64,000 nt of DNA from Candidatus Nanopelagicales bacterium (GTDB lineage Bacteria > Actinomycetota > Actinomycetes > S36-B12 > JAWKJK01), in NCBI GenBank assembly GCA_041393815.1, contig JAWKJK010000006.1, positions 19,002 to 83,001 on the forward strand, in the 5' to 3' direction. Made by a program: the position numbers and the translations under genes. The notes beneath the pieces are model-generated. The model ran no database searches and was not told the origin of the DNA. It saw only the letters and a program-made list of their open reading frames with translations. Of this stretch, positions 26,796-64,000 are shown piece by piece; position 1 is the stretch's first letter; each line of letters starts with the position of its first letter.

Positions 26796-26867
26796 TCCGC
26801 GCGCGCAGAGACCGGCGCACGTGCACGGGAGGAGATGAGCGGATGGCAGAAAGCGCCGATCCCGGAG

Positions 26868-26895
26868 CCGTCCGGCCTGGCAGCGGGCCGGACGG
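26868..26895 (+). terminator. Perfect 10-bp stem hairpin between the repeat-protein gene and cbiM (terminator or attenuator candidate)
   Basis: CCGTCCGGCC (26868-26877), an 8-nt loop, then GGCCGGACGG (26886-26895). It is followed by the 12-nt palindrome CCGGGGCCCCGG (26902-26913). Confidence 0.4.
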
Positions 26896-26931
26896 TGCGT
26901 GCCGGGGCCCCGGAGCCGCGTAGGCCCGGGG

Positions 26932-26975
26932 CCTTGTTGCAAGGGACTTGCAGAAGCAAGGCGGCCGCATATCCT
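26932..26975 (+). promoter_or_regulatory. Candidate promoter (TTGCAG-N16-TATCCT) with two dyads, positioned for a leaderless cbiM transcript
   Basis: -35 TTGCAG (26948-26953) and -10 TATCCT (26970-26975). The GTG start at 26982 lies 6 nt after the -10. Dyads CCTTG-ttg-CAAGG (26932-26944) and CTTGC-agaa-GCAAG (26947-26960) overlap the -35. Confidence 0.35.
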
Positions 26976-26981
26976 GACCCG

Positions 26982-37357: not shown

Positions 37358-37631
37358 GCCTCGTCTGCAGTTGTCCGTCGGTGTCCATGTTCTCAAGCGG
37401 GACAGTGACAGTGACTTCTTCGTGTCCATGGTCGTCCGTGGCCGACCGCCACGATGGATGCCGGAATGGATGCCGCTGCGCGACCCATGCAGAGCGCGTG
37501 TCGGCAGCCATCCCCGCGGGTCACCGACGTGATGGACAGGTAGCGGTGGCCGGGCTAGATTCCGCGAGCCTCCTTTCGGCGAGGTGCCCCCACGGCGCGT
37601 GGGGCCGCTGCGGGGGACGAGGGGACGGGGC

Positions 37632-40277: not shown

Positions 40278-40350
40278 TGCGCCGCCAGGGACTCGAACCC
40301 CGAACCCGCGGATTAAGAGTCCGCTGCTCTGCCAGTTGAGCTAGCGGCGC
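40278..40350 (-). tRNA. tRNA-Lys (anticodon CUU)
   Basis: The reverse complement reads GCGCCGC-TA-GCTC-AACTGGCA-GAGC-A-GCGGA-CTCTTAA-TCCGC-GGGTT-CGGGG-TTCGAGT-CCCTG-GCGGCGC-A, a 73-nt cloverleaf. CCA is not encoded. A TAGATT -10 candidate (complement of 40360-40365) lies 9 nt upstream. Confidence 0.9.
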
Positions 40351-43020: not shown

Positions 43021-44973
43021 TCAGGGGATGGTGATGACGCCGGCGTGGTCGCCGTAGACGCGGCCTTGGTTGGAGGCGACCCAGATCTGGTAGGTGCCTG
43101 GTGTGGTGGGGCCGGTGATGGTGAAGGGCTGTTCCTTGGTCTGGACCTTTCCGGAGGCGACGGTGGCGGAGTTGCGGGTCAGGTACACGGTGGTGCCGGG
43201 GGAGAAGTTGCCCGGCAGCACGGTGTACTTGTTGCCGCTGCGGCCGTTGAGGCCGAACGGGATGATCACCAGGGTGAAGGTGCTGGAGGTCGCCAGCACG
43301 GGGCTGCTGCCGCCGCCGATGCGCACGGCGTAGGTGCCGGTCTCGGCGGGGATCCACTGGTTGCCGCCGATGGCTGTGCCGTCGAAGCGGATGGCGCCGC
43401 TGGCTTGCACGGTGGTGGAGGCCTTGGCGGATCCGTTGAGGGTGACGTAGGCGGTGGTGCCGGCGGGGATGCCGGTGCTGACCGCGGAGACCCCGAAGTA
43501 GCCGTTGCTGGAGATCTGCGACCCGCTGGCCGCCGGTGAGGTGACGGTCACGGTGGCGCCGGCGCCGGGGGTGACCGGGACCGAGGGGGTGGAGTACGGG
43601 CCCTGCCCGACGGCGTTGGTCGCCGCGACGCGGAAGGACACGTTGATGCCGTTGGTCAGGCCGGTGACCTCCAGGGAGGTCGCGGTCGGACCGGCGGGGG
43701 AGCCGGCCGCGGGGGTCCAGGTGGTGCCGGCGTCGACGGACTGCTGGACCACGTACCCGGTGATCGCCGACCCGCCGTCGGATCCAGGCGCGGTCCACGA
43801 CACGGTGGCCTTGCCGTCACCCGGCGCGGCGGTCACCCCCGTCGGCGCACCGGGCACCGACGCGGGGATCGAGCAGGTGAAGCCGGCCGGGACCGTGTCG
43901 TAGTACTGGATCACACCGTCCGCCCACTGGTCCCAGCCGTAGGCGATCGGGTGGTACCAGGTCGACACCTCGTAGCCGGAGGTGAAGGGCTTGACGAACC
44001 AGGCGTTGCTGTTGTCGGCCCCGGAATTCGCGTTGAGTTCGTGGCCTGCGAAGACCTCCCGTGCCACGTCGCTGTAGTACGTACGGGGGGTGCACCAACC
44101 GCCGTTCATCGCTGCGATGACCTGACGCTGAACTTCGCTGCCAGCGTCCCCGAGTTGCCTCACTGCGGCGTTCGCGTTGTAGGTGCCAAGCATGAGCGGC
44201 ACGTTTGGGGCCAAGTACGGGTAGCCCTCGTAGATCAGGACGGCGTCCGGGCGCATCCTGGCCCGCACCGCCCGAAGCGTGTCCAGAACCGCGGTCTTCA
44301 ACGCGGGGAGCTTGCTCTGTGCGGCGTTCACCGCGTTCTCGCAGTTAGTTGCGCTTTGGAAGACGAAGCACCACTCCACGATTGTGCTGAAGCCGATGTC
44401 GTTGCCGCCGATCGTCAGCAGGACCACATCGGCGGTGGTGTCCACAGCGTCGATCTGCGGCTCCATGTAGGGGCTGCACAGGATGGTCCCGGTGGCTTCC
44501 CGGGTGGTGGAGTTGAAGTCGAACGACTGCGCGCTGTAGCTGTATCTCTCGTCGGGCAGGCTCGGCGTCGGGCAGACGTCGTTCTGCTCCGCGAGGGCGA
44601 CATAGTCCGCCTCGGTGAAGGTGCCGGAACCCGGGATGGTCTGGTTGAAGGGCACCTGCGGCTTGGTGATGTCCACTCCGGACAGCACATACGTGCCGGT
44701 GATGTTGGCGGTCACCGCCCCGCTGCAGGCCCGGTTCACGTAGGTCGCGCCCTGGGACGCGGCGAACTGGCCGCCCCAGTTCATCGGGCTGCGGAAGCAG
44801 TCGTTGTTCGCCGGGACGTAGTCCTGGGTGCCGTTGCCCGCGGAGTAGGAGTCGCCGAGTTGGACCACCTTCTGCACCGGCGGCCCGGCGGCGGCCGGTC
44901 CGGCGCTGGCAACGACGGCGGGCGCACTGACCGCGACCAGGAGGGTGGCGAGCAGGGCCATGCGTGTTCTCAC
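43021..44973 (-). CDS. Secreted SGNH/GDSL hydrolase with FN3 and the same C-terminal beta module as the beta-helix protein
   Basis: GTG 44973 (or ATG 44961) gives the signal peptide RTRMALLATLLVAVSAPAVVASA. Block I 'LGDSYSAGNG' and block III 'IGGNDIGF'. The C-terminal ~270 aa are nearly identical to those of the 37632-40187 product. A hand-counted GC sample (44341-44400) is ~53%. Confidence 0.8.
   Translation of the reverse strand: MRTRMALLATLLVAVSAPAVVASAGPAAAGPPVQKVVQLGDSYSAGNGTQDYVPANNDCFRSPMNWGGQFAASQGATYVNRACSGAVTANITGTYVLSGVDITKPQVPFNQTIPGSGTFTEADYVALAEQNDVCPTPSLPDERYSYSAQSFDFNSTTREATGTILCSPYMEPQIDAVDTTADVVLLTIGGNDIGFSTIVEWCFVFQSATNCENAVNAAQSKLPALKTAVLDTLRAVRARMRPDAVLIYEGYPYLAPNVPLMLGTYNANAAVRQLGDAGSEVQRQVIAAMNGGWCTPRTYYSDVAREVFAGHELNANSGADNSNAWFVKPFTSGYEVSTWYHPIAYGWDQWADGVIQYYDTVPAGFTCSIPASVPGAPTGVTAAPGDGKATVSWTAPGSDGGSAITGYVVQQSVDAGTTWTPAAGSPAGPTATSLEVTGLTNGINVSFRVAATNAVGQGPYSTPSVPVTPGAGATVTVTSPAASGSQISSNGYFGVSAVSTGIPAGTTAYVTLNGSAKASTTVQASGAIRFDGTAIGGNQWIPAETGTYAVRIGGGSSPVLATSSTFTLVIIPFGLNGRSGNKYTVLPGNFSPGTTVYLTRNSATVASGKVQTKEQPFTITGPTTPGTYQIWVASNQGRVYGDHAGVITIP
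43027..43836 (-). repeat. Right arm of the ~0.8-kb inverted repeat (3' end of the SGNH hydrolase gene)
   Basis: Its reverse complement matches 39342-40181. Identity stops at the last sense codon (ATC ACC ATC then CCC TGA vs CGT TAG). Confidence 0.85.
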
Positions 44974-45172
44974 GGGAGAGACTCCGAGGGGATGCAGGAT
45001 TTTGTCGACCCCCGCCACCCCGCCGTGGAGGAGCAACCGCCGGGCGCCGCCCCACCCGGTCGATGAGGCGCGCCGAACGTAACACGCCCCCGCCGCGTGG
45101 GCCGGGGAGCGCCTCGCGGGTGAACGATGGTGACCGGGCCGCCGCAGAGCAGACAGAAGGGGACGTGCACCG

Positions 45173-45910
45173 ATGGAGCTGACCCGGGTGCGTCGGGATG
45201 CGCGCGACTGGCCGCAGGACCAGCTCGAGGCCCTGTTCCGTGACGGCTTCCCCCCGTTCATCGTCGCGGATGTCGACGCCGAGCGGATGCTGCCGGAGAT
45301 CGGGGAGTCCTTCGCCGACCTTGACGTCTTCCTGCTCGACGGCGACGGGGTCGTCGTTGCCGGCGGGTGGGGAGTCGCGCTGGGGTGGGACGAGAGCGTC
45401 GAGGACCTGCCGACCGGCTACACCGACAGCCTGCGCCGGGCGCTGCGCGACCGCGCGGACGGGCGCGCACCCGACACCTTCGTGCTGTGCGCCGGCATCG
45501 TGCGCCCGGACCGGCACGGACGCGGACTCGCGGCCGACCTGGTCACCTCGTTGTGCGACCTGGCGGAGGAGCGGGGCCTGGCCCAGGTGATCGCGCCCGT
45601 GCGCCCCACCCTCAAGCCGCGCTACCCGCTTACGCCGATCGACGAGTACGTCACCTGGACCCGGGAGGACGGGTCACCGCTGGACCCCTGGCTCCGCACC
45701 CACCTGCGGATCGGGGGCCGGATCCTCGCCACCGCACCACGTTCGCAGGTCATGACCGGGACCGTCGCTCAGTGGGAGGGGTGGTGCTCGATGGCGTTTC
45801 CCGCCAGCGGCGACTACGTGATCCCCGACGGCCTGAGCGTGCTCACGGTCGACCGTGACCAGGACCTCGGCACGTACGTGGAGCCCAACGTCTGGGTGCG
45901 GCACCGCTGA
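45173..45910 (+). CDS. Putative GNAT-like N-acetyltransferase
   Basis: 245 aa. The 'GIVRPDRHGRGLAADLV' stretch resembles GNAT motif A (Q/RxxGxG/A). Otherwise weakly recognisable. Confidence 0.5.
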   Translation: MELTRVRRDARDWPQDQLEALFRDGFPPFIVADVDAERMLPEIGESFADLDVFLLDGDGVVVAGGWGVALGWDESVEDLPTGYTDSLRRALRDRADGRAPDTFVLCAGIVRPDRHGRGLAADLVTSLCDLAEERGLAQVIAPVRPTLKPRYPLTPIDEYVTWTREDGSPLDPWLRTHLRIGGRILATAPRSQVMTGTVAQWEGWCSMAFPASGDYVIPDGLSVLTVDRDQDLGTYVEPNVWVRHR

Positions 45911-51995: not shown

Positions 51996-52870
51996 GCGCG
52001 CCGACGGCCGTCGTGACCGACGTGACGAAGTCCTACGGTTCGAGGCAGGCGCTGCAGCCGACGTCGCTGCGGCTGGAGCCCGGAGTCGTGGGACTGCTGG
52101 GCCCGAACGGCGCCGGCAAGAGCACCCTCGTCCGCCTGCTGGCCTCGGCGATGCCCCCCACGTCGGGGCGGATCGTCGTGGACGGGCACGAGGTGACCGG
52201 GTCCATCGCCGAACGCACCGCCGCTCGCCGGGTCATCGGCTACCTGCCGCAAGAGGTGAGGTTCCCGCGCGGCATGACCGCCTTCGCCTTCGTCGACTAC
52301 ATCGCCGTGCTCAAGGAGTGGGCGGAAGGCACTGCTCGCCACCGTGAGGTGGACCGGGTGCTCGACCTCGTGGGGCTCGGCGACCGCCGCACCTGGCCGA
52401 TCCGGAAGCTGTCGGGAGGTCAGCGGCGGCGGCTCGCCCTCGCGCAGGCACTGGTCGGCGACCCGAGGCTGATCGTGCTCGACGAGCCCACCACCGGTCT
52501 CGACCCGCAACAGCGAGCGTCGCTGCGCGACGTCCTCTCCGGGCTGGCGCAGCGGGGGACGGTCTTCCTCGCCACGCACCAGACAGAGGACGTCGCCGCC
52601 CTCTGTGACCGGGTGATCCTGCTCGTCGACGGATGCGTGCTGTTCGACGGTCGGGTGGCCGAGTTCGTCGCGACCGCGGAGGGGCACGTGTGGGTCGGTG
52701 CGTCGGCAGCGCCGGACAGCCATGCGTCCTGGCGCACCGGCACCGGATCCGTGCGGTCCGTCGGCGGTCGGCCGGGCGCGGACGCCGCCCCCGTCCCCGC
52801 CACCGTCGAGGACGCCTACCTGCTCATGACGGGACCGTCACGCACCCCGAGGGAAGGAGCAGCCCGATGA
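51992..52870 (+). CDS. ABC transporter ATP-binding protein
   Basis: GTGA overlap. Walker A GPNGAGKST, signature LSGGQRRRL and Walker B LIVLDEP. Confidence 0.9.
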   Translation: MSAPTAVVTDVTKSYGSRQALQPTSLRLEPGVVGLLGPNGAGKSTLVRLLASAMPPTSGRIVVDGHEVTGSIAERTAARRVIGYLPQEVRFPRGMTAFAFVDYIAVLKEWAEGTARHREVDRVLDLVGLGDRRTWPIRKLSGGQRRRLALAQALVGDPRLIVLDEPTTGLDPQQRASLRDVLSGLAQRGTVFLATHQTEDVAALCDRVILLVDGCVLFDGRVAEFVATAEGHVWVGASAAPDSHASWRTGTGSVRSVGGRPGADAAPVPATVEDAYLLMTGPSRTPREGAAR

Positions 52871-53811
52871 GCGCCGACGCCACCCGTCTGCCCGTCGTAC
52901 CCGCCTCGTCCGCGGCGCCCGCCTCCGCCGTCGGCCGGCTCGCCGTCACCGAGGCGGGTCGCTACGCCCGGCACCCCCTGCTCCTCATCGGCGTCGTCCT
53001 CACCGCCGTCCTGTCGGCACAGTGGCGGGACGCCACCGGCGAGCTGGACTCCGGGCTCACCTACGTCCTCGCCCCCGCCCTGTTCATCGGCGTCTTCGGC
53101 ATCGTGGTGATGTACCGACTCACCCGAAGCTCCGACCGCCTGGCCGAGGCGTCCGGTTCTCCGGCACTCGGGATGCGGGCGCGCACCGCGGCGTTGGCAT
53201 GGGCCGTGCTCGTGCCGTTCAGCGCCGGACTGCTCTGGTTCGTCTGGGCCGCCTGGAGGTACAGCACCACCGTGACCCCGCCGAACGGGCTTCCGTTCGG
53301 AGGCGTCGGCGGCTCGTGGTCGTACGCCTGGCTGTTCTCGCTGGGAGCGGTCAGCTGCGCCGGGGGGCCGATCATCGGCCTCGACCTGGCCCGGTGGTTC
53401 CCCCGCCGGGGCATCGCCGTCGTCACCGGGGTCCTGCTCGTCATCGCGTCGATGGCGCTGAACGTCCTGATGCAGCCAGGAGTCCTCGAGGGCCTGCGCT
53501 ACGTCCGGGTCTTCTGGCCGTTCACGTGGTTCGGCGGCCAGTTCGGGATCGAGGGCGACGAGAACCGTACGGTGATCCTGACCGGATCGCCGGAGTGGTA
53601 CGTCGCCTACCTCGTCTCGCTGTGCGCCCTCGGCATCCTGGTCGCCCTCTACCGAGACCGTGAGCGGCCGCGCGAGCGTCTCCGGGTCGGCATCGTCGTC
53701 ACCACGATCGCCGCGGTCGTTCTCGGCGTGATCACCATGACGTCGGGTGTGCAGGAGACGATGGTCAACCCGATCCCGAGCACGGGGGCAGCCGCGTCAC
53801 CGGGCGAGTGA
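52867..53811 (+). CDS. Polytopic membrane protein (probable ABC-2-type permease partner)
   Basis: ATGA overlap with the ATPase gene. About 6 TMs. No motif recognised. Confidence 0.55.
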   Translation: MSADATRLPVVPASSAAPASAVGRLAVTEAGRYARHPLLLIGVVLTAVLSAQWRDATGELDSGLTYVLAPALFIGVFGIVVMYRLTRSSDRLAEASGSPALGMRARTAALAWAVLVPFSAGLLWFVWAAWRYSTTVTPPNGLPFGGVGGSWSYAWLFSLGAVSCAGGPIIGLDLARWFPRRGIAVVTGVLLVIASMALNVLMQPGVLEGLRYVRVFWPFTWFGGQFGIEGDENRTVILTGSPEWYVAYLVSLCALGILVALYRDRERPRERLRVGIVVTTIAAVVLGVITMTSGVQETMVNPIPSTGAAASPGE

Positions 53812-54419
53812 TGCTCGCGCATGCACGCGTCGCTGTCCCGTGGGCGCTGGTGCTGGTCTGCTCGGTCATGATCGTCGTCATGCTGGCCCTCCTCGGCCGC
53901 TGGCCCGGGCAGACGTGGGCGCTGGGGGGCGTCGCGGTGGGTGCCCTGGCCGGTGCGGTCGCCTGGTGCCTGGACGAGCCGCTGGCGGAGATCGTCGGCG
54001 CGGCGGCACGGCACCTGCGCTGGCGACTGGCGTCCCAGGGGCTCGGTGTCGCCGTCCTCGCGATGGTGTGGGTTGCCGCCGTGATGGTGCTCGGCGGCGA
54101 TCTGTTCGGGCGACGATCCGATCTTGTGCTTCAGGGCCTGGCGGCGATGGTCGCCGTCGGCGGCATGACTGCCTGGCTGCGCTCGCGGGGGAGTGGGCAT
54201 CCCGGCCGCGTCCTGGCGCCGTACGTCGTGCTCATCTCGGCTGGGCTGGCGATCACGCGACCCCTTGCCCGGCAGCTGCCGCTCTTCCCGTTGCCGTACG
54301 AGGGGCCGTGGGCGGCCAGCCGGGTCCTGTGGGTGCTCCTGGCCGGCATCGGCGTGGGCGCTCTGCTACTGGCGGTCACCGACGCCCGCTGGAGGCGTCG
54401 TCCGGTCTCTCCACGCTGA
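53808..54419 (+). CDS. Hypothetical membrane protein
   Basis: GTGA overlap with the preceding gene. About 6 hydrophobic segments. No family recognised. Confidence 0.5.
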   Translation: MMLAHARVAVPWALVLVCSVMIVVMLALLGRWPGQTWALGGVAVGALAGAVAWCLDEPLAEIVGAAARHLRWRLASQGLGVAVLAMVWVAAVMVLGGDLFGRRSDLVLQGLAAMVAVGGMTAWLRSRGSGHPGRVLAPYVVLISAGLAITRPLARQLPLFPLPYEGPWAASRVLWVLLAGIGVGALLLAVTDARWRRRPVSPR

Positions 54420-54449
54420 GGCGTGGTCCCGCGTGGGGCGAACGCGCGG

Positions 54450-55517
54450 TCAGGACGTCGCGGTGACGGACAGACCGGAGACGGTGGCTCCGCCGGTGCC
54501 CCAGGTCCGGGCGCCGTACTGGGTGCCCTGCGGCCCGTCCGCGGGCAGGTCGACGCGCATGACCTCCTGGCCGTTGACCGTGCCGACGAACTGGTTCCCG
54601 ATGACGGTGACCTGCAGGTTGTTGGCCGCGTAGGGGTCGAGTCCCGCAGGCACCTCGATGCGGCCGAGCGGGCGGTAGTACTCCGACCCGTTGGTCCACT
54701 GGCGCAGCAGGATCGACGGGCGGCCGTTGGTCAGGTAGCCGGGGTCGATCTGGAAGACGTAGCCGGTCAGCCCGTTGCTGCCCTGGGAGCCGCGGAAGAC
54801 GAGCCCCGCCCCGGGCGCGCCCGCCGACGGGGTCACGGTGCCACTGAGCACGAGGTCGCTCAGCGCCAGCCCGCCGGGAGTGGACAGCAGCACACCTGCC
54901 TCGGGCAGCCGCACCGTCCCGTCGCTCCAGACCACCGGCCTTCCGGTCCGGTTGTTGTACGGGTTCAGCAGCGCCGCGGCGAAGTCGGCCGCGCTCAGCG
55001 TCACCCGGACGGGCCCTGCCGGCCCTGCCTCGCCGGCGGCGCCGACGTCGGTGCCGGGGACGGGCGTGCAGGCACCGTCGGTGGTGGCGGCGATGCCGCT
55101 GAGCCCGTGGATGCTGGAGGCGACGACGCGCAGGCACGAGCCGTCGTCCGCGAGGACCGATCCGACCCAGGTGACCTCGTCACCCGCCTCGAGCACCGAC
55201 GCGACGTGGTGATCGTCCGTCGAGACGGCGCTGGGCCCCTCGGCCACTCGGACGGGCTCCCCGTTGACCGACCAGCGCTCGGCCTCCTGCGCCACCGCCG
55301 CCGAGACGTCGTCCGCCGGACGATCGGCCACGATCGAGGTGAAGGCCTCCATCCCCAGCGCACGCATCAGCGACTCCGAGGCCGCCGTACTGGCGGCGAA
55401 CCGTTGGTGCAGGAACACCGGGATCGCGATCGCCGCCAGGATCCCGACGATGATGATCACCACCAGGAGTTCCACGAGGCTGAAGCCTGAGTCGTCCTGG
55501 CGGTTCCTGCGGGACAT
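54450..55517 (-). CDS. Prepilin-type N-terminal cleavage/methylation domain protein with C-terminal concanavalin-like (LamG/DUF1080-like) domain
   Basis: ATG 55517 gives 'MSRRNRQDDSG|FSLVELLVVIIIVGILAAIAIPVF', a class III signal with Glu+5. The C-terminus 'GYVFQIDPGY...NNLQVTVIGNQFVGTVNGQEVMRVD...YGARTWG' looks like a jelly-roll lectin fold. Confidence 0.75.
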   Translation of the reverse strand: MSRRNRQDDSGFSLVELLVVIIIVGILAAIAIPVFLHQRFAASTAASESLMRALGMEAFTSIVADRPADDVSAAVAQEAERWSVNGEPVRVAEGPSAVSTDDHHVASVLEAGDEVTWVGSVLADDGSCLRVVASSIHGLSGIAATTDGACTPVPGTDVGAAGEAGPAGPVRVTLSAADFAAALLNPYNNRTGRPVVWSDGTVRLPEAGVLLSTPGGLALSDLVLSGTVTPSAGAPGAGLVFRGSQGSNGLTGYVFQIDPGYLTNGRPSILLRQWTNGSEYYRPLGRIEVPAGLDPYAANNLQVTVIGNQFVGTVNGQEVMRVDLPADGPQGTQYGARTWGTGGATVSGLSVTATS

Positions 55518-55664
55518 CGTGATCACCGTCTCCCGACGCCGTGTCCTGCGCCCGCAGGGCACGCCTTCCCATCGGCGGACCGGGCTGCGGAGCGCAGGGC
55601 CCAAGGTCCCGCCTCCCGCGGCACCGAGCTACGGGCCCGGTCCGGTGGCGGCTGCGCAGCAGCG

Positions 55665-56744
55665 TCAGGACCGGGGGAGGGGCTCGTCGCTGCAGGCCGC
55701 TCGGCCGGCCTCGGCCATGGCGCGGCCACGGCCCACCTCGGTGGGCAGTTGGTGCAGCAGGAGCTCGTACGCGCTCGGGACGAAGGCCAGCGGGAGGCCT
55801 CGGGCGCCGAGCACGCGCTCGCACCAGCCGGTGAACTCGAGGACCACGGTGTCGTCGTCCACCAGGACAGCGGCGGTCACCGTGCGCAGGGTGGCCCGAA
55901 GATCCTCGCGGGTCGCTCTCAGCGCCGCGTCCCTCGCCATGACCTGCGGCCAGGCGGCCACCGCCTCGGCCACGGCCCGCTCCACCATCGACTCCCCGAA
56001 GCGCTCCAGGAAGCGGACCTCGGCGGTGCGGTCCTCGTCCCTCGGGGTGTCCCGAGACGGTGCGGGTGGTTCCCGGAGCGAGCGCATGACCAGGTCGGCC
56101 CCGTGCGAGAAGGTCGGTGCCCACTGGTCGGCTCCGACCGGGGTGGCCCAGCGTCCGTGCGGCCCGAAACCGCGCCCTCCGACGACCACGGTGGTCCCGA
56201 TGCGCCGCAGGGTGGTGATGGCGTGCCAGGCACCGACGAGGGACTGGGACAGGGAGCAGGAGACCGCGACGACCGGAGGGGGGTCGGGACCCAGGTAGGC
56301 CGTCAGCTCGTGCGCCGGAAGCGACGGCCCGACGAACTCGACGTCGATCCCGCGCAGCCGCAGGACGTCGGCCATCATCCGGCCGGGCAGGGAGTGCCAC
56401 TCGCCCTCGCTGCACAGGACCGTGGCCCGTCCGCGCGCCCCCTCCGGGACGGCTCCCGGTAGCGTCCGCGCAGCCGCGACGGTCGCCTCCAACGCGGACT
56501 CGGTGATGGCCGTGGCCCGATGCTCCAGGGCGATGCTCCAGCGGCCCTGCTCCCAGCCCCGGCCGACCTGGGACTGGGCCCGGGCCAGCAGGTGGGTGAC
56601 CACGTCCTCAGCGGTTGCGCCGAGGTCGAGGAGCTCGAGCGCGACGTCGACGGCCGCGCGTCGGTCGCCGCCGCGGATCGCGTCGAGGTACCGACCGAGG
56701 TGGTAGTCGTCCTCGTCGGCGGGGGCCGCCCAGGCGTCGGCCAT
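55665..56744 (-). CDS. Stand-alone cobalamin (B12)-binding domain protein (CarH/AerR-like sensor module without a DNA-binding domain)
   Basis: SD AGGAAG before the ATG. W-x9-EH motif 'GWEQGRWSIALEH' (B12-binding_2). Rossmann B12-binding domain 'VLCSEGEWHSLPGRMMADVLRLRGIDVEFVG...VVAVSCS...VVVGGRGF'. The ~130-aa C-terminal domain is of unknown type. Confidence 0.75.
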   Translation of the reverse strand: MADAWAAPADEDDYHLGRYLDAIRGGDRRAAVDVALELLDLGATAEDVVTHLLARAQSQVGRGWEQGRWSIALEHRATAITESALEATVAAARTLPGAVPEGARGRATVLCSEGEWHSLPGRMMADVLRLRGIDVEFVGPSLPAHELTAYLGPDPPPVVAVSCSLSQSLVGAWHAITTLRRIGTTVVVGGRGFGPHGRWATPVGADQWAPTFSHGADLVMRSLREPPAPSRDTPRDEDRTAEVRFLERFGESMVERAVAEAVAAWPQVMARDAALRATREDLRATLRTVTAAVLVDDDTVVLEFTGWCERVLGARGLPLAFVPSAYELLLHQLPTEVGRGRAMAEAGRAACSDEPLPRS

Positions 56745-56762
56745 GGGGCTTCCTGGCTCCCC

Positions 56763-59700
56763 TCAGCCGTCCTGGGGGAGGTCCGGCCCCCAGCGCTCGT
56801 CGTTCAGCCACGCGAGGACGTCGGGCTGGGCCAGCGGCGGCGAGAAGAGGAACCCCTGGAGGCGGTCCACGCCCAGGTCGGTCAGCGCCCGCGCCTGCGC
56901 GGACGTCTCCACTCCCTCGGCCACGGTCACCGCGCCCAGGGCCCGGGACATCGTCACCATCGCCTGGACCAGCGCGCAGTGCGACGACTCGGGCGGCTCG
57001 CACACGAACGAGCGGTCCAGCTTGAGCTCGTCGAACGGGAAGGTGCGCAGCTGGCCGAGGCTGGAGTAGCCGCTGCCGAAGTCGTCGAGCGCGACCGCGG
57101 CCCCGGCCTCGCGGAGCCGCTCCAGCGAGCGCAGTACGACACCGTCCCTGCTGAACGCCGCCGCCTCCGTCACCTCGACGGTCCACCCGCGCAGGTCGGG
57201 TCCGAGGCAGCGCACCACCTCGTCCAGGAACTGCGGGTGGGTGAGCTGACCCGGTGCGAGGTTCACGGACACGGTCAGGTCGGGCCACCGACGTCGCAGC
57301 GCGGGCAGGTCCGCGACGGCCTGCCGGAGGAGCTGCAGCGTCATCTCGTCCAGCCGGTGGAAGTCCTCGGCCAGTGCGAGGAAGTCGCTGGGCGGGAGGA
57401 CGCCGCGCTCGGGGTGGTGCCACCGCGCCAGCGCCTCGAGCTCGACCGGCCGGCCCGTTCGCGCGTCCACCACGGGCTGGTAGTGGGGGACGATCTCCCC
57501 GAGCTCCAGGGCCCGGGACAGATCCGCCCGCTGCTCGGCGCGCAGCCTCGCGGTGTGCTGCAGCCGGTCGGAGTAGAACACCACCTGGTCGCCGCCGCGA
57601 CCCTTCGCCGAGTACATCGCGAGGTCGGCGCGGTTGACGAGCTCGTCGGCGCCCTCCCCGTCGCTGGGGTAGTGCGCGACGCCGATGCTGGCGGTCACGG
57701 CCAGGGCCGGGGCGAACCCGAGGTCGATCCCCTCCGACACGCTCTCGAGCGCGCGCAGGGCGACCGCGGTGCCCTCGTCGGCCGCCTGCACCTCGACGCC
57801 TCCGGACGCGTCAGCGCCGGCCGTCGGGTCGGCCGAGGCGCGGGTCAGCCGGATCGGGTCGGACATCACGGAGAGCAGCTCCTGGGCCAGCCGGCCACCC
57901 TCGTGCGGGGGCTCGTGCAGGTCGTGCGGGGCGATGACGAGGTACTCGTCCCCGCCGAGGCGTGCGACCGAGTCGCTCTCCCGGGTCGCCGCCCGCAGCC
58001 GCTCCGCCACCGCGGTGAGGACCGCGTCCCCGGCCTCGTGCCCGAGTCGGTCGTTGACCAGCTTGAAGTCGTCGAGGTCGATGAACAGCACCGAGATGTG
58101 CTCGCCGCTGCGGTGCGCTCGGTGGATGGCCTGCCGGAGGCGGTCGAAGACGATCGTCCGGTTCAGCAGCCCGGTCAGCGGGTCGGTCTGCGCGATCCGC
58201 AGGGCCGCCTGCTCCCGGTGCCGTTCCTGCGTCACGTCGAGGATCGTCGCCATGAGCACCGGTTCGGCGCCGGGCTGCAGGGGCGGGGCCGAGCGTACGG
58301 TCAGCCGACCCCAGATCACCTCACCGCTCTTGGTGATGCAGCGCTTCACCAGGCTGTAGCGGTCCCGGTCTCCCCGGAGGAGCTCGCCGAACAGCTTGGT
58401 CTCCTCCGGCAGGTCGTCGGCCAGCGTCAGCTGGGCGAAGTGCATGCCGGTGAGCTCCTCGCGCGGGTAGCCGAACAGCTCGCACAGCGCATCGTTGGGT
58501 CGCAGGATGTGCCCGTCCCTGCTGGTGATGGACATCGCGGCGCTGGACCCCGCGAACACCGCCTCGAGCTGCGCCAGGTGGCCGGCCGCCATGGCGGTGG
58601 CCTGCTCCGCCGCTGTGACGTCGCGGAGCGACACCAGCAGGGTCGCGGAGCCCGGGTCGCTGCCCTCCTCGGGCAGCCCCACGAACGCGATCGTCTGGTC
58701 GACCGTGAGCAGTGACCCGTCGCGGGCCACGTAGTGCGTGCGCGCCGTCACCGGGTCGGCGCCGCCCGCGACCTCGCTGAGCCGGCGCACCGTCTCGGGG
58801 ACCTCGGCGGGCTCGATCCAGGACGTGAGCGGGGTGCCGACCACCCCCTCGTCGTCCACGCGGAGCAGGTCGTGGACCAGCGGGTTGACCCGGGTGATCA
58901 CCCCGGCGGCGGTCAGCGTGAGCATGGGGGTGCCACCGCTGCTGAACGTGGTCTCGGCGCGGCGGCGCTCGCGTTCGGCGACGTCGCGGGCCCGGGCCAG
59001 GTCGGTGATGTCGAGGATCGTGCCCACGCGGTACCGGGGGAGGCCGTGGGCGTCGAGGACCAGGTGGCTGAGCTCGCGGACGGTGCGCGTCTCCCCGTCC
59101 GGTCGCACCACGCGGTAGTCCAGGGGCGAGTCGGTTCCGCCCCCGCCCGCCGTGGCCCGGGTGACGGCAGCCAGGTCGTCCGGGTGGACCAGGCTGCGCA
59201 GCAGGCCGGGGTCCGCCTGCACCTCCTCCGCGGTGACGCCGAAGACGTCGCTGACCGTGTCCGAGACGTAGCCCAGGGAGTCCCCGTCGATGCTGGCGCG
59301 GTAGACGGTGTGCGGCACCGTCTCGGCGATCATCCGGTACTCCTCGTCGCGCACCGACAGCTCCGCCCGGGCGTTGGCCAGCTCGGTGATGTCCGACAGC
59401 GCGATGACGGCGCCGGTGACGGAGCCCCCTTCCTCGTACGGCATCACCTGCAGCAGGTAGGTCGCCGACGTGGACGAGACCTCCCGCACCTCGCCCTCGC
59501 GGGTGGCCATGACCGTGTCGAGGATCGACGGCAGCGCGTCCAGGTCCAGGTTCGTCGGCAGCCTCGACAGCCGGGTCCCGATGTCCGACGCCACCAGTCC
59601 GAACGCCTTGACGGCCAGGGGAGAGAACCGCAGCACCCGCTGGTCGCGGTCCACCAGCAGGATCGCGGTGTGCACGGACGACTGGATGTTCGTCAGGACG

Positions 59701-61856
59701 ATGTTGGACTCGGAGAGCTCAGCGGTGCGCACCTCGAGTGTCTCGTTGACGGTGGTGAGCTCCTCGTTGGTGGCCTGCAGCTCCTCGTTGGTCGTCTCGA
59801 GCTCCTCGTTCGTGGCCTGGAGCTCCTCGCCCGACGCCTGCAGCTCCTCGTTCATCGACTGCAGTTCCTCGTTGGAGGACTCCAGCTCCTCGACCACCGC
59901 CTGCAGGTGCTCGCGGCTGCCCGCCAGCTCCAGCTCCAGTTCCTTGACCCGCAGCAGCAGGTCGGTGACGTCGTCCGCGCCGGTCGACTCGGCGACGACC
60001 GGTGGGACTCGGTCGTGGACGTCCCGGGTCGACGGGGCCGCGACGAAGGACAGTGCCACGTACGGGTCGTCCTCGTCGGCCTCGGCCAGCGCCTGGGCGC
60101 GCAGCTGCCAGGTCTCCGCGCGCCCCTCCGCGTCCCGCAGGACGACGGTGTGGCCGACGGGGGTGGCATCGGACCGGCGCACGCGTGCCAGCAGGCTGCC
60201 GACCTCGGTCCGGAGCTCCGGGACGACCATCCCGGCGAGCGTCATGTCGCCGTCCGCGTCCGGCATGGCGAGGAACCGGCGCACGTCGCCCACGGTGTGC
60301 ACCGGGATCCCGTCCGGGTCCACCAGCACCGTCGCAGGGCCGTACTGGCCCAGCAGGGTGTCGCGCAGCCGGTCGCGAACGCGGTCGCGGGACGAGCGAC
60401 CGCCCGCCGGACGGCGGACCGGGTGCGTGAGGATCGGGGTGCGGGGCAGGCCGGTGTAGGTGGCGATCGTGCTCCCCGGCTTGGTCTGGAAGACCCGGCT
60501 CGCGGCGTCCACCGTGGCGAACAGCGGGGTGTCGGCGGGGATGGACTCCGACCGGCCCAGGAAGAGCAGCCCCTGGGGCGCCAGGGCCGCGTGCAGGTTC
60601 GCCAGCACCTGGTCCTGGACGTCGGGGATCAGGTAGATGAGCAGGTTGCGGCAGCTGACCAGGTCCATCCGCACCAGCGGAGGGTCGCGGGTCACGTCCT
60701 GGCGGGCGATGACGAGCATCTCCCGCAGGCGCTTGTCCACCTGGGCCAGGTCGCCGGTGACGGTGAAGTAGCGGCGGCGCCACTCCTCGGGCACCTCGGC
60801 CAGGGCCGAGACCGGGTAGGTGCCCCGGCGCGCGGTCTCCATGGCCGCGTCCGAGATGTCGGTGGCGAAGACCTTGACCGGCGTGTCGACCTCCTGCTCG
60901 CGCGCGGTCTCCGCCAGGAGCATCGCGACGGAGTACGCCTCCTCGCCGGTGGCGCAGCCAGCGACCCAGGCCCGCAGCGGCTGTCCGGACGACTTCGCGG
61001 CGACCACGGGACGCAGCGCGTCGGCGAGGGCGTCGAAGGACTTGCGGTCGCGGAGGAACCCGGTGACCGTGATGAGCATGGAGTCGCGCAGCGTCTCCAG
61101 CTCCGCGGGGGTCTCGCGCACGTACGTCACGTACTCCGCGGTCGTGCCCAGCCCGAGCTTGGCGATCCGCTTGGCGAGCTGGCGCCCCAGCGTGCCGTCC
61201 TTGTAGCTGGCGATGTCCCAGGCGGTGACCCGCCGGGTCTCTGCGGCCAGCTCCGCCAGGTCGAGGTCCCCGGAGAACCGGCCCACCGTCTCCGGCAGCC
61301 GCTGGCCGGACAGCACGGCGCCGATCGCCGCTCCGATGCCCACCGGGTCCGCGGCGACGTCGACGACGCCCGCGTCGATGCAGGCGCCCGGCATGTCGCG
61401 GTAGCGCGCCGAGGACGGGTCCTGGGCGAAGGTCCGACCTCCCGCGGCCCGGACCGCGCGCATCCCGGCCACCCCGTCGGAGCCGGTCCCCGACAGCACC
61501 ACCCCGATCGCGGCCGGGCCGGCCTCCGCCGCGATGGACGTCAGCAGGGCGTCGATGCTCGGCTGGGGGGAGATCCTCGGCTCGGCCTGGGCCGAGGTGA
61601 GGACCGCGCCGCGCAGGCGTACGTCCCGGTTGGGTGGCGCCAGGAAGACCTCACCGGCGACGAGCGGCGTGGAGTCACCGATCTCCCGGACCGGCAGGGA
61701 GGTCTCCCGGCCGAGGACCTGCAGGAGCAGGCTGGGGTGCTGCGGCGACATGTGCTGGGCCACGACGTACGCGACATCGCCGGCGGGAAGGGCGGGCAGC
61801 AGCTCCCGGAGGGCCTCGACCCCCCCAGCCGAGGATCCGATGCCCACGACCCACAT
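56763..61856 (-). CDS. CheB methylesterase - CheR methyltransferase - coiled coil - multi-PAS - GGDEF - EAL signalling protein (1697 aa)
   Basis: CheB 'VVGIGSSAGGVEAL'. CheR 'WVAGCATGEEAYSVAMLL'. Heptad array NEELQAT x7. Several PAS blocks. GGDEF domain with 'RLGGDEYLVIA'. EAL domain with 'VELEALARW', 'DDFGSGYSSL' and 'ELKLDRSFV'. Confidence 0.9.
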   Translation of the reverse strand: MWVVGIGSSAGGVEALRELLPALPAGDVAYVVAQHMSPQHPSLLLQVLGRETSLPVREIGDSTPLVAGEVFLAPPNRDVRLRGAVLTSAQAEPRISPQPSIDALLTSIAAEAGPAAIGVVLSGTGSDGVAGMRAVRAAGGRTFAQDPSSARYRDMPGACIDAGVVDVAADPVGIGAAIGAVLSGQRLPETVGRFSGDLDLAELAAETRRVTAWDIASYKDGTLGRQLAKRIAKLGLGTTAEYVTYVRETPAELETLRDSMLITVTGFLRDRKSFDALADALRPVVAAKSSGQPLRAWVAGCATGEEAYSVAMLLAETAREQEVDTPVKVFATDISDAAMETARRGTYPVSALAEVPEEWRRRYFTVTGDLAQVDKRLREMLVIARQDVTRDPPLVRMDLVSCRNLLIYLIPDVQDQVLANLHAALAPQGLLFLGRSESIPADTPLFATVDAASRVFQTKPGSTIATYTGLPRTPILTHPVRRPAGGRSSRDRVRDRLRDTLLGQYGPATVLVDPDGIPVHTVGDVRRFLAMPDADGDMTLAGMVVPELRTEVGSLLARVRRSDATPVGHTVVLRDAEGRAETWQLRAQALAEADEDDPYVALSFVAAPSTRDVHDRVPPVVAESTGADDVTDLLLRVKELELELAGSREHLQAVVEELESSNEELQSMNEELQASGEELQATNEELETTNEELQATNEELTTVNETLEVRTAELSESNIVLTNIQSSVHTAILLVDRDQRVLRFSPLAVKAFGLVASDIGTRLSRLPTNLDLDALPSILDTVMATREGEVREVSSTSATYLLQVMPYEEGGSVTGAVIALSDITELANARAELSVRDEEYRMIAETVPHTVYRASIDGDSLGYVSDTVSDVFGVTAEEVQADPGLLRSLVHPDDLAAVTRATAGGGGTDSPLDYRVVRPDGETRTVRELSHLVLDAHGLPRYRVGTILDITDLARARDVAERERRRAETTFSSGGTPMLTLTAAGVITRVNPLVHDLLRVDDEGVVGTPLTSWIEPAEVPETVRRLSEVAGGADPVTARTHYVARDGSLLTVDQTIAFVGLPEEGSDPGSATLLVSLRDVTAAEQATAMAAGHLAQLEAVFAGSSAAMSITSRDGHILRPNDALCELFGYPREELTGMHFAQLTLADDLPEETKLFGELLRGDRDRYSLVKRCITKSGEVIWGRLTVRSAPPLQPGAEPVLMATILDVTQERHREQAALRIAQTDPLTGLLNRTIVFDRLRQAIHRAHRSGEHISVLFIDLDDFKLVNDRLGHEAGDAVLTAVAERLRAATRESDSVARLGGDEYLVIAPHDLHEPPHEGGRLAQELLSVMSDPIRLTRASADPTAGADASGGVEVQAADEGTAVALRALESVSEGIDLGFAPALAVTASIGVAHYPSDGEGADELVNRADLAMYSAKGRGGDQVVFYSDRLQHTARLRAEQRADLSRALELGEIVPHYQPVVDARTGRPVELEALARWHHPERGVLPPSDFLALAEDFHRLDEMTLQLLRQAVADLPALRRRWPDLTVSVNLAPGQLTHPQFLDEVVRCLGPDLRGWTVEVTEAAAFSRDGVVLRSLERLREAGAAVALDDFGSGYSSLGQLRTFPFDELKLDRSFVCEPPESSHCALVQAMVTMSRALGAVTVAEGVETSAQARALTDLGVDRLQGFLFSPPLAQPDVLAWLNDERWGPDLPQDG

Positions 61857-62054
61857 GGACCCGTCACCCCACTCGCGTGCTGCAACCCCACGAACACCGT
61901 TCTTCCCGGACCCTAGGACACCCCCGCGCGACGTCGCTCGCTGACAGCGAGGGTGAGCGGAGGATCGCCGGGATACCCAGGGGGGTACAGCGCGGGCTGT
62001 GGTGCGTGAGCCACGTCATGGCGTACCGGGATGGCGGCGTCCGGCGTCCGGGGT

Positions 62055-62077
62055 GATACTTGCATGGTGCAAGCATC
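62055..62077. promoter_or_regulatory. 23-bp near-perfect palindrome overlapping the marR start codon (candidate MarR operator)
   Basis: GATACTTGCA-tgg-TGCAAGCATC: 10-bp arms with one mismatch. GATACT could double as a -10 element 6 nt upstream of GTG 62067. Confidence 0.55.
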
Positions 62078-62555
62078 TGAACCGCTGGACCCGCGCCGGG
62101 TGGCCCGGGGGGCCGTGGCGGATCCGGCTAACGCCGACGCGGTCGGAGCGCTGGCCGACCTGCTCGGCGTGCTGCAGCGCAGCCGCCTGCTGCGACAGGA
62201 GGGCGCGCAGGCCACCGCCATGCTGGTGCACCTGTCCAAGCGGGGGCCGATGCGCTCGTGCGACCTGGCCCAGGCGATGCAGCTGGACCAGTCCACCGTC
62301 AGCAGGCACCTTCGCCAGCTGACTCAGGCACGGCTGGTCGAGCGCTCGGCCGACCCGACCGACGGGCGAGCCCACGTCGTGAGCGCCACCGCCTCGGGCC
62401 GCGCGCGGGCCGAGCGGGCCATCGTCGACCGGGTCCGTGACTTCGAGCGGGTCCTCGCCTCGTGGTCCGACGTGGACCGCGACACCTTCGCCCGGCTTCT
62501 CGGCCGCTTCAGCGCCGAGCTCGAGAACGACCTTCTTCAGGGAGTCGATGCATGA
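62064..62555 (+). CDS. MarR family transcriptional regulator
   Basis: wHTH 'MRSCDLAQAMQLDQSTVSRHLRQLTQARLVERSADPTDGRAHVV'. The start could be ATG 62064, GTG 62067 or ATG 62031. Confidence 0.85.
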   Translation: MVQASEPLDPRRVARGAVADPANADAVGALADLLGVLQRSRLLRQEGAQATAMLVHLSKRGPMRSCDLAQAMQLDQSTVSRHLRQLTQARLVERSADPTDGRAHVVSATASGRARAERAIVDRVRDFERVLASWSDVDRDTFARLLGRFSAELENDLLQGVDA

Positions 62556-64000
62556 GCAGCAGTCCACCCGAGACCGACCCGTCCGCGGCGGCCGATCCCG
62601 AGCGCGTCCTCGTCGCCGAGGGTGCCCCCGAGCATGACCTGCTGGGCGGGCAGCGGCTACGGCTGGTGCTGGGAGCGCTGATGCTGACGCTGTTCCTCGC
62701 CGCCCTCGACCAGACGATCGTCAGCACTGCGCTGCCCCGCATCACCAGCGACCTCGGCGGCCTGAACCAGCTGGCCTGGGTGGTCACCGCGTACCTGCTC
62801 GCCTCGACCGCCTCGACCCCGATCTGGGGGAAGATCTCCGACATCTACGGGCGCAAGCTGATGCTGCAGTCCGCCATCGTGATCTTCCTGGTCGGGTCGG
62901 CGCTCGCGGGCGCCTCGACGTCGATGGGCTGGCTGATCGTCACCCGGGGTATCCAGGGCCTCGGCGGTGGCGGGCTCATGGTGCTGGTCATGGCGGTCAT
63001 CGCCGACGTCATCCCCCCGCGCGAGCGCGGGCGATACACCGGTCTGTTCGGCGCGGTGTTCGCCGTGGCGAGCGTGGTGGGCCCGCTGCTCGGCGGCTGG
63101 CTGGTCGAGACGCTGTCCTGGCGGTGGATCTTCTACATCAACATCCCGCTCGGGATCGCCGCGTTCTTCGTGCTCGCCTCGGTCCTGCACATCCCGCAGC
63201 ACCGCGTCGATCACCGGGTCGACTACATCGGTGCCGCCCTCATGGTCGGCGGCGTCGTCCTCGGCCTGCTGGTCACCGAGTGGGGCGGGCGCGAGTACGC
63301 ATGGACGTCCCCGACCATCCTGCTGATGGCCGCCGGATCGGTCCTGCTCCTCGTCGCCTTCGTCCGCCGGCAGCTGCGCGTCCCTGAGCCGCTGGTCCCG
63401 ATGTCGCTGTTCCGCAACAAGGTGTTCGGCGTCAGCAGCCTCATCGGCTTCATCGTGGGACTGGCCATGTTCGGCGCCATCATCTTCCTGCCGCTGTACC
63501 TGCAGGTGGTCCAGGGCGCCAGCCCGACCCAGGCCGGGCTGCAGATGATCCCGATGATGCTCGGCCTGCTCTCGATGTCGATCATCTCCGGGCGGCTGAT
63601 CTCCCGGTTCGGCCGCTACAAGGTGTTCCCCATCATCGGCACGGTGCTGGCGACGGTCGCCCTGCTGCTGTTCAGCACCCTGCAGGTGGACACGCCGTAC
63701 TGGAAGGTCGCCCTGGCCATGTTCGTCCTGGGCGCCGGCCTCGGGAACGTCATGCAGGTGCTCGTCATCGCCGTGCAGAACTCGGTGGATCAGCGCGAGA
63801 TCGGCGTCGCCACCAGTGGCACGACGTTCTTCCGGACGATCGGAGGCACGTTCGGCACCGCGGTGTTCGGCGCGGTCATGACGTCGCAGCTGGCGTCGCA
63901 CCTCGCCGCGTCGCTGCCCGCCGGTGCCGCGGGCGGTCTCGACCCGTCGCAGCTGACCAGCGCCATGTCGACGATCGCCGGGCTGCCCGCCCAGGTGCAG
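62552..64000 (+). CDS. MFS transporter, DHA2 (EmrB/QacA) family; 3' end lies outside the window
   Basis: ATG 62552 overlaps the marR stop (ATGA). Contains 'LMLTLFLAALDQTIVSTALPRITSDLGG' and 'GKISDIYGRKLML'. The frame is open to the window end, so it is not listed in the ORF track. Confidence 0.85.
   Translation, partial: MSSSPPETDPSAAADPERVLVAEGAPEHDLLGGQRLRLVLGALMLTLFLAALDQTIVSTALPRITSDLGGLNQLAWVVTAYLLASTASTPIWGKISDIYGRKLMLQSAIVIFLVGSALAGASTSMGWLIVTRGIQGLGGGGLMVLVMAVIADVIPPRERGRYTGLFGAVFAVASVVGPLLGGWLVETLSWRWIFYINIPLGIAAFFVLASVLHIPQHRVDHRVDYIGAALMVGGVVLGLLVTEWGGREYAWTSPTILLMAAGSVLLLVAFVRRQLRVPEPLVPMSLFRNKVFGVSSLIGFIVGLAMFGAIIFLPLYLQVVQGASPTQAGLQMIPMMLGLLSMSIISGRLISRFGRYKVFPIIGTVLATVALLLFSTLQVDTPYWKVALAMFVLGAGLGNVMQVLVIAVQNSVDQREIGVATSGTTFFRTIGGTFGTAVFGAVMTSQLASHLAASLPAGAAGGLDPSQLTSAMSTIAGLPAQVQ

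Follow-up and report, generated by a model that had tools for sequence, protein, structure and literature searches.

The window analysed here is a stretch of 64,000 nucleotides from the genome of a Candidatus Nanopelagicales bacterium (Actinomycetota; contig JAWKJK010000006.1), with a G+C content of about 73% across its whole length. Three consecutive genes on the minus strand stand out, with a G+C content at third codon positions (GC3) of 0.91-0.96, typical of coding sequence (frames with GC3 >0.9). The first (56763..61856) encodes a giant signalling enzyme of 1697 amino acids, in which Pfam and NCBIfam searches of the open reading frame (ORF) detect a CheB methylesterase, a CheR methyltransferase, a coiled coil, about four PAS domains, a GGDEF domain and an EAL domain. 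The second (55665..56744) encodes a protein of 359 amino acids that phmmer comparison to the Protein Data Bank (PDB), an AlphaFold2 model and a Foldseek search identify as a stand-alone photocobilin, and the third (54450..55517) a prepilin-type protein of 355 amino acids, recognised by Pfam N_methyl and TIGR02532, with a class III signal and a putative C-terminal ConA-like beta-sandwich. It is the association between the first two of these genes that forms the main subject of this report.

The junction between giant and photocobilin reads TGA, 18 nt (56745..56762, minus strand) and ATG; within the spacer lies an AGGAAG Shine-Dalgarno sequence that ends 5 nt short of the start codon. A further 147 nt separate the TGA of the photocobilin gene from the ATG at 55517, which is the more plausible start of the pilin-like gene and is preceded by a GGGAGA Shine-Dalgarno sequence; a TTG start at 55604 would extend the protein from 355 to 384 amino acids. 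Convergent plus-strand genes for an extracytoplasmic function (ECF) sigma factor, a zf-HC2 anti-sigma factor and an ATP-binding cassette (ABC) ATPase occupy one flank, and a divergent pair encoding a MarR regulator and a major facilitator superfamily (MFS) protein the other. The three minus-strand genes are bracketed on both sides and therefore constitute a three-gene unit at most. A scan of 54200-62700 for promoters and terminators found none and, at 73% G+C, is uninformative; folding of the 147-nt spacer before the pilin-like gene is no stronger than that of shuffled sequences (z=-1.08). The three ORFs had been singled out in a preliminary description made from the letters alone, and their coordinates, domains, spacers and the AGGAAG Shine-Dalgarno sequence were all borne out by the ORF listing, by Pfam and by the junction sequences. 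The profile searches that it had called for (Pfam and NCBIfam) recovered the domains it had named, the lectin fold only tentatively, and found no helix-turn-helix (HTH) domain in the 359-residue protein.

Identity of the 359-residue protein

Two domains of the 359-residue protein score above the gathering threshold in Pfam. Residues 18-87 (56484..56693, minus strand) form the four-helix-bundle cap, B12-binding_2 (PF02607; E=1.2e-12), and carry G61xxW64 together with E74-H75, the residues of the adenosyl pocket and dimer interface; residues 106-204 (56133..56429, minus strand) form the Rossmann B12-binding domain (PF02310; E=1.2e-10), with G114xxH117, which includes the lower axial histidine, and G139xxxP143. 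The W-x9-EH motif given in the preliminary description is present: GWEQGRWSIALEH contains W64-x9-E74-H75. Some 130 residues follow the Rossmann domain. They have no match in Pfam, yet are conserved in all homologues, with W307 invariant.

Comparison to known structures accounts for this C-terminal segment. Among all PDB chains searched with phmmer, SasPcob from Saccharothrix syringae (8J2W) matches with E=9.1e-53 over residues 20-349, and AbPcob (8J2Y) with E=1.8e-36, whereas for CarH, LitR and AerR the E-values are no better than 1e-5 to 1e-7 and the match is confined to the B12 part. An AlphaFold2 model, for which 49 sequences were aligned, averages 95.7 in predicted local distance difference test (pLDDT) score and places helices at residues 237-264, 272-295, 299-314, 321-332 and 338-349. 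Foldseek ranks 8J2W, 8J2X and 8J2Y first for this model, at full length and with template modelling (TM) scores of 0.80-0.90 (0.80-0.87 for SasPcob and 0.83-0.90 for AbPcob). Together the alignment to 8J2W and the modelled helices define a photoglobin domain, a five-helix bilin-binding globin, at about residues 237-349 (55698..56036, minus strand), in which D281 and W307 are the residues of interest. The protein thus belongs to the photocobilin family and retains the family's chromophore residues, and we regard it as virtually certain that it is a full-length stand-alone member: four-helix bundle, Rossmann B12 domain and C-terminal bilin-binding photoglobin. The preliminary description was right to see a CarH-type sensor without a DNA-binding domain, but the module is not the bare CarH/AerR-type one it described, the photoglobin domain (about residues 237-349) having been overlooked.

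Photocobilins have a short published history. According to the main text of Schneider et al. (2021; PMC8717448), the photoglobin domain was defined computationally as a non-heme globin related to phycocyanin, nearly always occurs in fusion with, or next to, B12-binding_2 plus B12-binding, and was predicted to form a coupled sensor with B12; SpoIIE, STAS, GGDEF and EAL/HD-GYP genes were recorded in its neighbourhoods, especially in actinobacteria. Zhang et al. (2024; PMC10979010) coined the name 'photocobilin', solved structures of SasPcob (8J2W, dark; 8J2X, light) and AbPcob (8J2Y), and found that photocobilins bind adenosylcobalamin (AdoCbl) and biliverdin, the two chromophores being optically coupled. 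The same work reported that light increases the turnover of the diguanylate cyclase (DGC) in AbDPcob more than 10-fold, and that photocobilins, as separate proteins, act in trans on an isolated DGC, modulating its activity and breaking up its dimer. The family, its chromophores and photochemistry, its control of DGCs and its association with GGDEF/EAL and SpoIIE/STAS genes (the associations being already in PMC8717448) are accordingly in the literature of 2021 and 2024, and the earlier statement that no described system was recognised at this locus does not hold.

SasPcob is the closest characterised protein. It shares the three-domain architecture of the window protein (about 340 versus 359 amino acids; 38-39% identity), likewise stands alone, and has been proposed to act by protein-protein interaction; it has been characterised biochemically, whereas the window photocobilin is known from sequence. 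Residue equivalences were taken from a HMMER alignment to 8J2W, in which the published numbering is the chain index plus 6. By this alignment W64 corresponds to Trp61 of the adenosyl pocket, E74/H75 to Glu71/His72 of the adenosyl pocket and dimer interface, H117 to the lower axial ligand His108, D281 to Asp270, the key biliverdin ligand, and W307 to Trp296, a biliverdin contact. The SignatureFinder signature of light-responsive B12 domains (GxxW, EH, GxxH and GxxxP; PMC11796333), given alternatively for photocobilins as W-x9/10-EH plus E/DxH (PMC10979010), is complete in the window protein as G61-R-G-W64, E74-H75, G114-E-W-H117 and G139-P-S-L-P143. It is kept across 86 family members, in which W64 and E74 are invariant and H75 is present in at least 90%. 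In AbPcob, a poor biliverdin binder, the Asp that binds biliverdin is replaced by His (PMC10979010); the window protein keeps D281, as do all 25 of the 25 GGDEF-linked photocobilins with a residue at that position. The window photocobilin is therefore probably competent to bind a bilin.

Two identities suggested by the shared B12 module were rejected. CarH and LitR have the same four-helix bundle with W-x9-EH and the same Rossmann domain with lower axial His, but they carry a MerR HTH, which neither Pfam nor NCBIfam finds in the window protein; with the CarH equivalog the score is 43 bits where 400 are required, and the match lies in the B12 part only. AerR is likewise devoid of a DNA-binding domain and works through a partner protein, as is proposed for the window protein. 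Its structure (7TE2) lacks the photoglobin domain that is present here and covers residues 29-142 only, at E=1e-5 compared to 9e-53 at full length for SasPcob, so that an AerR/PpaA identity can be dismissed and the analogy to AerR/PpaA drawn in the preliminary description is weaker than it seemed. The window ORFs that were scanned yielded no gene resembling CrtJ or PpsR.

The giant enzyme and its conserved neighbour

The giant begins with a CheB_methylest domain (residues 4-177; 61326..61847, minus strand as are all that follow; Pfam E=1.2e-49), in which the motifs GSSAGG, AQHM and GSDG are present; we take these, from E. coli CheB, to hold the Ser, His and Asp of the catalytic triad. CheR_N and the S-adenosylmethionine-dependent methyltransferase CheR follow (residues 199-451, with the motif AGCATGEEAYS; 60504..61262; Pfam CheR E=2.5e-49). 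A coiled-coil linker at about residues 630-720 (59697..59969) is evident from heptad-like (E/N)EEL(Q/E) repeats and from weak Pfam matches to RIMB1_N and Rootletin. The PAS array (58221..59696) comprises PAS_10 at 721-824, PAS_3 at 863-947 and more PAS sequence up to residue 1212, with TIGR00229 matching in three stretches. The GGDEF domain (residues 1222-1430; 57567..58193; Pfam E=5.9e-40 in two stretches, and orthologue alignment) has an RESD I-site and the active-site motif GGDEY, where all close orthologues aligned have GGDEF; it also bears an acidic Ala/Gly-rich insertion of about 40 residues (approximately 1341-1385), a segment that ranges from 0 to about 40 residues among orthologues. 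The EAL domain (residues 1444-1674; 56835..57527; Pfam E=3.6e-66, and alignment) retains EAL, DDFGSGYSS, ELKLDR, EGVET and QGF. From these motifs the GGDEF site appears near-canonical and the EAL site intact.

An enzyme of this kind is not rare. The giant is identical (100%) to a database entry, P0102, named 'EAL domain-containing protein [Candidatus Nanopelagicales bacterium]', and 3950 proteins matched it at E<=1e-50. Nearly all of the best 120 of these have its architecture, including proteins of Vibrio, Paramagnetospirillum, Thiocystis and Rhodoferax; full-length homologues carry the same Pfam set in the same order (CheB_methylest, CheR, coiled coil, PAS_10, PAS(n), GGDEF, EAL). The domain order is that of the proteins called 'two-component system CheB/CheR fusion protein', and the architecture is common, in Proteobacteria too. 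What sets the giant apart is the gene that follows it.

All five of the closest orthologues (P0103, P0105, P0107, P0111 and P0118; 49-54% identity) adjoin a downstream gene for a B12-binding protein of 352-353 amino acids, and in all five that gene begins 4 nt before the stop codon of the giant. More distant homologues, P0117 (41% identity) and P0121 (36%), have no photocobilin gene downstream. Among CheB/CheR fusion-PAS-GGDEF-EAL proteins, a photocobilin gene directly downstream is found only in the actinobacterial clade nearest the window (49-54%). A truncated orthologue of the giant, L010, is also paired with a photocobilin. P0118 is without CheB and L010 without a detectable CheR match, and both keep PAS-GGDEF-EAL together with the photocobilin. 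Giant and photocobilin are a conserved two-gene unit in related actinobacteria. The preliminary description had called for a comparison of neighbourhoods across genomes, and the comparison separates its three genes: the giant and the photocobilin are conserved as a pair, but the pilin-like gene is not.

In order to place this pair among photocobilins at large, one genome per species was scanned. Photocobilin relatives are encoded by 224 stretches, of which 80 loci were analysed; all 80 are from Actinomycetota or from unclassified metagenome-assembled genomes (MAGs). Genes in the 80 loci were called from the tblastn frame, and the nearest upstream gene of like orientation was classed by Pfam on alignments and by strand-restricted tblastn with domain queries. 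Counting the window as well (81 in total), a SpoIIE/PP2C phosphatase, with or without PAS/GAF, lies directly upstream in 44 loci and a GGDEF protein in 22; neither is found in 14, which have miscellaneous neighbours, and in one the contig ends. The GGDEF partners are mostly small (250-320 amino acids) and consist of a GGEEF domain preceded by an uncharacterised N-terminal domain. Frequently the upstream stop codon overlaps the photocobilin start by 4 nt. Where SpoIIE is upstream, the gene after the photocobilin is often STAS, and a STAS-HATPase_c_2 protein can lie upstream; these SpoIIE-photocobilin-STAS loci are partner-switching modules and match the predictions of PMC8717448 and PMC10979010, the latter of which named STAS, SpoIIE and PP2C proteins as partners of SasPcob. 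The conserved neighbour of the window protein, in contrast, is a GGDEF-EAL enzyme. Our census also reproduces the SpoIIE, STAS, GGDEF and EAL neighbourhoods given for photoglobin operons in the main text of PMC8717448.

A neighbour-joining tree of the 80-odd photocobilins separates by partner class: one clade holds all SpoIIE-linked sequences, two clades are GGDEF-linked, and the orphans form a separate clade. The window photocobilin falls among the giant-linked sequences, which constitute a grade at the base of the clade linked to small DGCs. GGDEF is the only domain common to giant and small-DGC partners; the N-terminal domain of the small DGCs shows no similarity to the giant beyond the GGDEF domain. 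The main text of PMC8717448 contains no mention of CheB/CheR fusion partners, and neither a comparison of photocobilin phylogeny with partner class nor an overlap of 4 nt with the gene upstream was found there. More generally, the main texts of three papers on photocobilins and photoglobins are silent on the giant as a cognate partner, on the strictness with which it is conserved in one actinobacterial clade and on the partner-class phylogeny.

Several loci of the census show features of their own. The small DGCs (L001, L007, L049 and others; for example L001:1795-2238) share an N-terminal domain of about 90-150 amino acids without a Pfam match, and L080 has a similar segment between a GGDEF-EAL gene and the photocobilin, immediately before the latter. 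In another Nanopelagicales MAG (L015:4505-6469) a protein of 654 amino acids joins a photocobilin to two PAS domains at its C-terminal end, an architecture absent from the published lists of photocobilin and photoglobin architectures that were consulted. A small ABM-family monooxygenase (113-117 amino acids) is encoded between the GGDEF and photocobilin genes at L062:9660-10001 and L077:4176-4529 (also L052:2-214). ABM proteins include the heme-degrading enzymes IsdG and MhuD, and the monooxygenase in L062 and L077 might for this reason supply the bilin chromophore; the window locus lacks a gene of this kind. A SOUL heme-binding protein (L011:9300-9809), encoded directly upstream of an orphan photocobilin and on the same strand, may be another link to tetrapyrrole supply. 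Directly upstream of an orthologous giant-photocobilin pair (L082:404-4831) are genes for URO-D, an amino-oxidase resembling protoporphyrinogen oxidase, and Chlor_dismutase/ChdC; their presence beside the pair could be coincidence or a link to heme or bilin.

A proposed mechanism and its alternatives

The best reading of these data is that the photocobilin is linked functionally, and probably physically, to a partner containing a GGDEF domain. It follows from the synteny in five of five orthologues, from a phylogeny that tracks the partner, from GGDEF being the sole shared domain, and from the order of domains in AbDPcob, an Acidimicrobiaceae protein in which DGC precedes photocobilin from N- to C-terminus, just as the two genes are ordered in the window. 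Together these points also make the GGDEF domain the likeliest site of contact. AbDPcob, as a light-activated DGC, is the published precedent for what we propose; it differs in being one polypeptide where sensor and enzyme are separate genes in the window, and the window partner adds CheB, CheR, PAS and EAL domains. The suggestion from the preliminary description that the B12 protein acts on the cyclic di-GMP (c-di-GMP) enzyme encoded upstream of it gains support from three sides: the gene order kept with a 4-nt overlap in every close orthologue, a GGDEF gene directly upstream of related photocobilins in about 21 further loci, and the published light control of DGCs by photocobilins, both fused and in trans (PMC10979010).

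The mechanism would run as follows. The CarH-type domain of the photocobilin would bind AdoCbl, with H117 as lower axial ligand and W64, E74 and H75 making up the adenosyl pocket and dimer interface, and the photoglobin domain would use D281 and W307 to hold a bilin, biliverdin or one akin to it, without a covalent bond. In the dark the holo-protein (AdoCbl His-on, plus bilin) would be a head-to-tail dimer. By analogy with SasPcob and AbDPcob, green light would act on the cobalamin directly and red light via the bilin; either wavelength would cleave the Co-C bond, which in turn would shift the E74/H75 helix and dissociate the dark dimer. The light-state photocobilin would then alter the giant, the putative product of the same transcript, by protein-protein contact, most likely at its GGDEF domain, and the balance between synthesis and hydrolysis of c-di-GMP would move. 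The sign of the effect could be either, since in the published trans assay it depended on biliverdin being bound. Cofactor binding, light response, interaction, contacted domain and sign are all things that we infer for the window pair from its characterised relatives; taken as a whole, we consider the passage from light to c-di-GMP in this pair to be probable, though well short of assured.

A number of observations weigh against this interpretation. The published effect in trans was obtained with a non-cognate pair, and its sign flipped according to whether biliverdin was bound (PMC10979010). Adjacency to a signalling gene is common rather than obligatory: 14 of the 80 related photocobilin genes have neither SpoIIE nor GGDEF upstream. 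In the window itself the two genes are 18 nt apart and do not overlap as they do in the orthologues, and both the interaction and the co-transcription of the pair are read from gene order. The cyclase activity of the giant is not assured, because of GGDEY in place of GGDEF and the insertion of about 40 residues. At the position of SasPcob His137, which makes a salt bridge to biliverdin across the dimer, the window photocobilin has E146 (H145 is adjacent). Finally, the scanned ORFs of the window revealed neither a heme oxygenase nor a heme-degrading gene of ABM type.

A single ORF of 660 amino acids (26796-28778, plus strand) fuses CbiM, PDGLE (CbiN-like) and CbiQ, and constitutes a cobalt-uptake transporter of the energy-coupling factor type, suggesting that the organism handles cobalt and cobalamin. 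Across the whole window, at gathering threshold, Rfam detects only two tRNAs and no cobalamin riboswitch, even upstream of this transporter.

It is also conceivable that the photocobilin does not report light. Like AerR, for which B12 serves as a co-regulator signal, it could sense the availability of cobalamin or of bilin (and hence heme breakdown), or redox state, and pass a metabolic signal to the c-di-GMP enzyme. The cobalt transporter in the same window is in keeping with this, as is the presence of a SOUL protein (L011) or an ABM monooxygenase (L062, L077) beside some family members; moreover, AbDPcob shows a different activity in each of its apo, AdoCbl-dark and light forms (PMC10979010). 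However, all four signatures of light-responsive B12 domains are conserved, the adenosyl pocket (W64, E74, H75) is conserved, and methyl-, hydroxo- or cyanocobalamin (MeCbl, OHCbl, CNCbl) in place of AdoCbl gave no increase in DGC activity (PMC10979010). We judge a cofactor sensor of this sort to be unlikely.

An explanation with about the same improbable standing is that adjacency reflects co-expression only, the target of the photocobilin lying elsewhere (for example SpoIIE/STAS, as predicted for SasPcob), or in the CheB, CheR or EAL part of the giant rather than in GGDEF. The giant certainly offers many other candidate surfaces, most family loci (44) are SpoIIE-photocobilin-STAS arrangements, and 14 photocobilins are orphans. 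Set against this, the close orthologues keep the pair with its 4-nt overlap without exception, the phylogeny separates cleanly by partner class, GGDEF is the one domain that giant and small-DGC partners share, and the pair persists where CheB (P0118) or a detectable CheR (L010) is missing. The weakest alternative, that the protein is a corrinoid methyl-carrier of MtbC/MttC type serving a methyltransferase, perhaps the CheR domain, draws on database names, on weak NCBIfam matches to MtbC and the pyl_corrinoid family and on Foldseek matches to MttC and MtaC (E about 1e-8 to 1e-6), but is essentially excluded by the full-length match to photocobilin structures, by the scores (MtbC 22.4 bits against a cutoff of 350; pyl_corrinoid 22 against 215), by structural matches that cover the B12 domains only (query-normalised TM about 0.3), by the W-x9-EH photoreceptor signature and the photoglobin domain, and by context, there being no MtbB-, MtaB- or MttB-type methyltransferase nearby among the window ORFs scanned. 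The names themselves, 'methanogenic corrinoid protein MtbC1' for many homologues at the Joint Genome Institute (JGI) and 'B12-binding domain-containing protein' for others, are corrected by the present assignment, and the JGI label looks like a systematic misannotation.

To return to the proposal that light acts through the photocobilin on the giant, its interest lies in what Zhang et al. (2024; PMC10979010) left aside: the function of stand-alone photocobilins "is less clear", and regulation in trans was demonstrated there only with a non-cognate cyclase. The window locus and its five syntenic orthologues provide natural sensor-enzyme pairs with which that function can be probed, including which domain the sensor touches, whether it activates or inhibits and what the bilin contributes; and since partner class tracks photocobilin phylogeny, co-variation offers a handle for mapping the interaction surface. 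A broader view, which we put forward tentatively, is that this would be the first natural cognate pair of a trans-acting, bilin-competent photocobilin and its enzyme, the two having co-evolved in a clade of uncultured Nanopelagicales-like actinobacteria, in which green or red light and PAS inputs, and possibly methylation, together set c-di-GMP, and that photocobilin lineages (a SpoIIE clade, GGDEF clades and an orphan clade) are partner-specific, each with an interface of its own. If so, photocobilins would be plug-in light-sensor subunits for signalling enzymes that are otherwise blind to light. Beyond the cognate pair and the correction of annotation, the finding is incremental.

The pilin-like gene and other features of the window

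The third gene of the cluster appears not to share in this association. Its product has a class III signal, DDSG|FSLVELLVVIIIVGILAAIAIPVF, detected by PF07963 (E=7.6e-8) and by TIGR02532 (30 bits against a cutoff of 16.3), and so the prepilin assignment made in the preliminary description stands. The lectin fold proposed along with it is plausible but tentative: Pfam gives a weak 3keto-disac_hyd/ConA-like match below the family cutoff (E=0.006), and a low-confidence AlphaFold2 model (pLDDT 60) has a C-terminal all-beta sandwich for which Foldseek returns galectin carbohydrate-recognition domains and CBM66 (target-normalised TM about 0.6, E about 1e-5 to 1e-6).

What follows the photocobilin gene changes from each related locus to the next, with APH, AhpC, STAS or unknown proteins encoded there. 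A search of 5.8 billion clusters returned a single full-length homologue of the pilin-like protein (P0056, 37% identity), which sits in an unrelated neighbourhood of cell-wall and transposase genes. For these reasons the pilin-like gene is a lineage-specific neighbour outside the giant-photocobilin module, and the earlier suggestion that it is a co-expressed output of the module finds no support. Neither among the ORFs scanned in the window nor around P0056 were pilus or secretion assembly genes (PilB/C/D/M-Q or Gsp) found.

Convergent on the pilin-like gene, the plus-strand segment 50602-54419 holds, besides the ECF sigma factor, the zf-HC2 anti-sigma factor and the ABC ATPase, two proteins (52633-53811 and 53808-54419) without a Pfam match. 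Further away are genes for two large fibronectin type III proteins (37533-40187, plus strand; 43021-45261, minus strand), one of which also has a GDSL lipase domain. Both are odd in composition, with a G+C content at first codon positions (GC1) of 0.58-0.59 and a high value at second positions (GC2), and between them, at 40278-40350, lies a tRNA gene.

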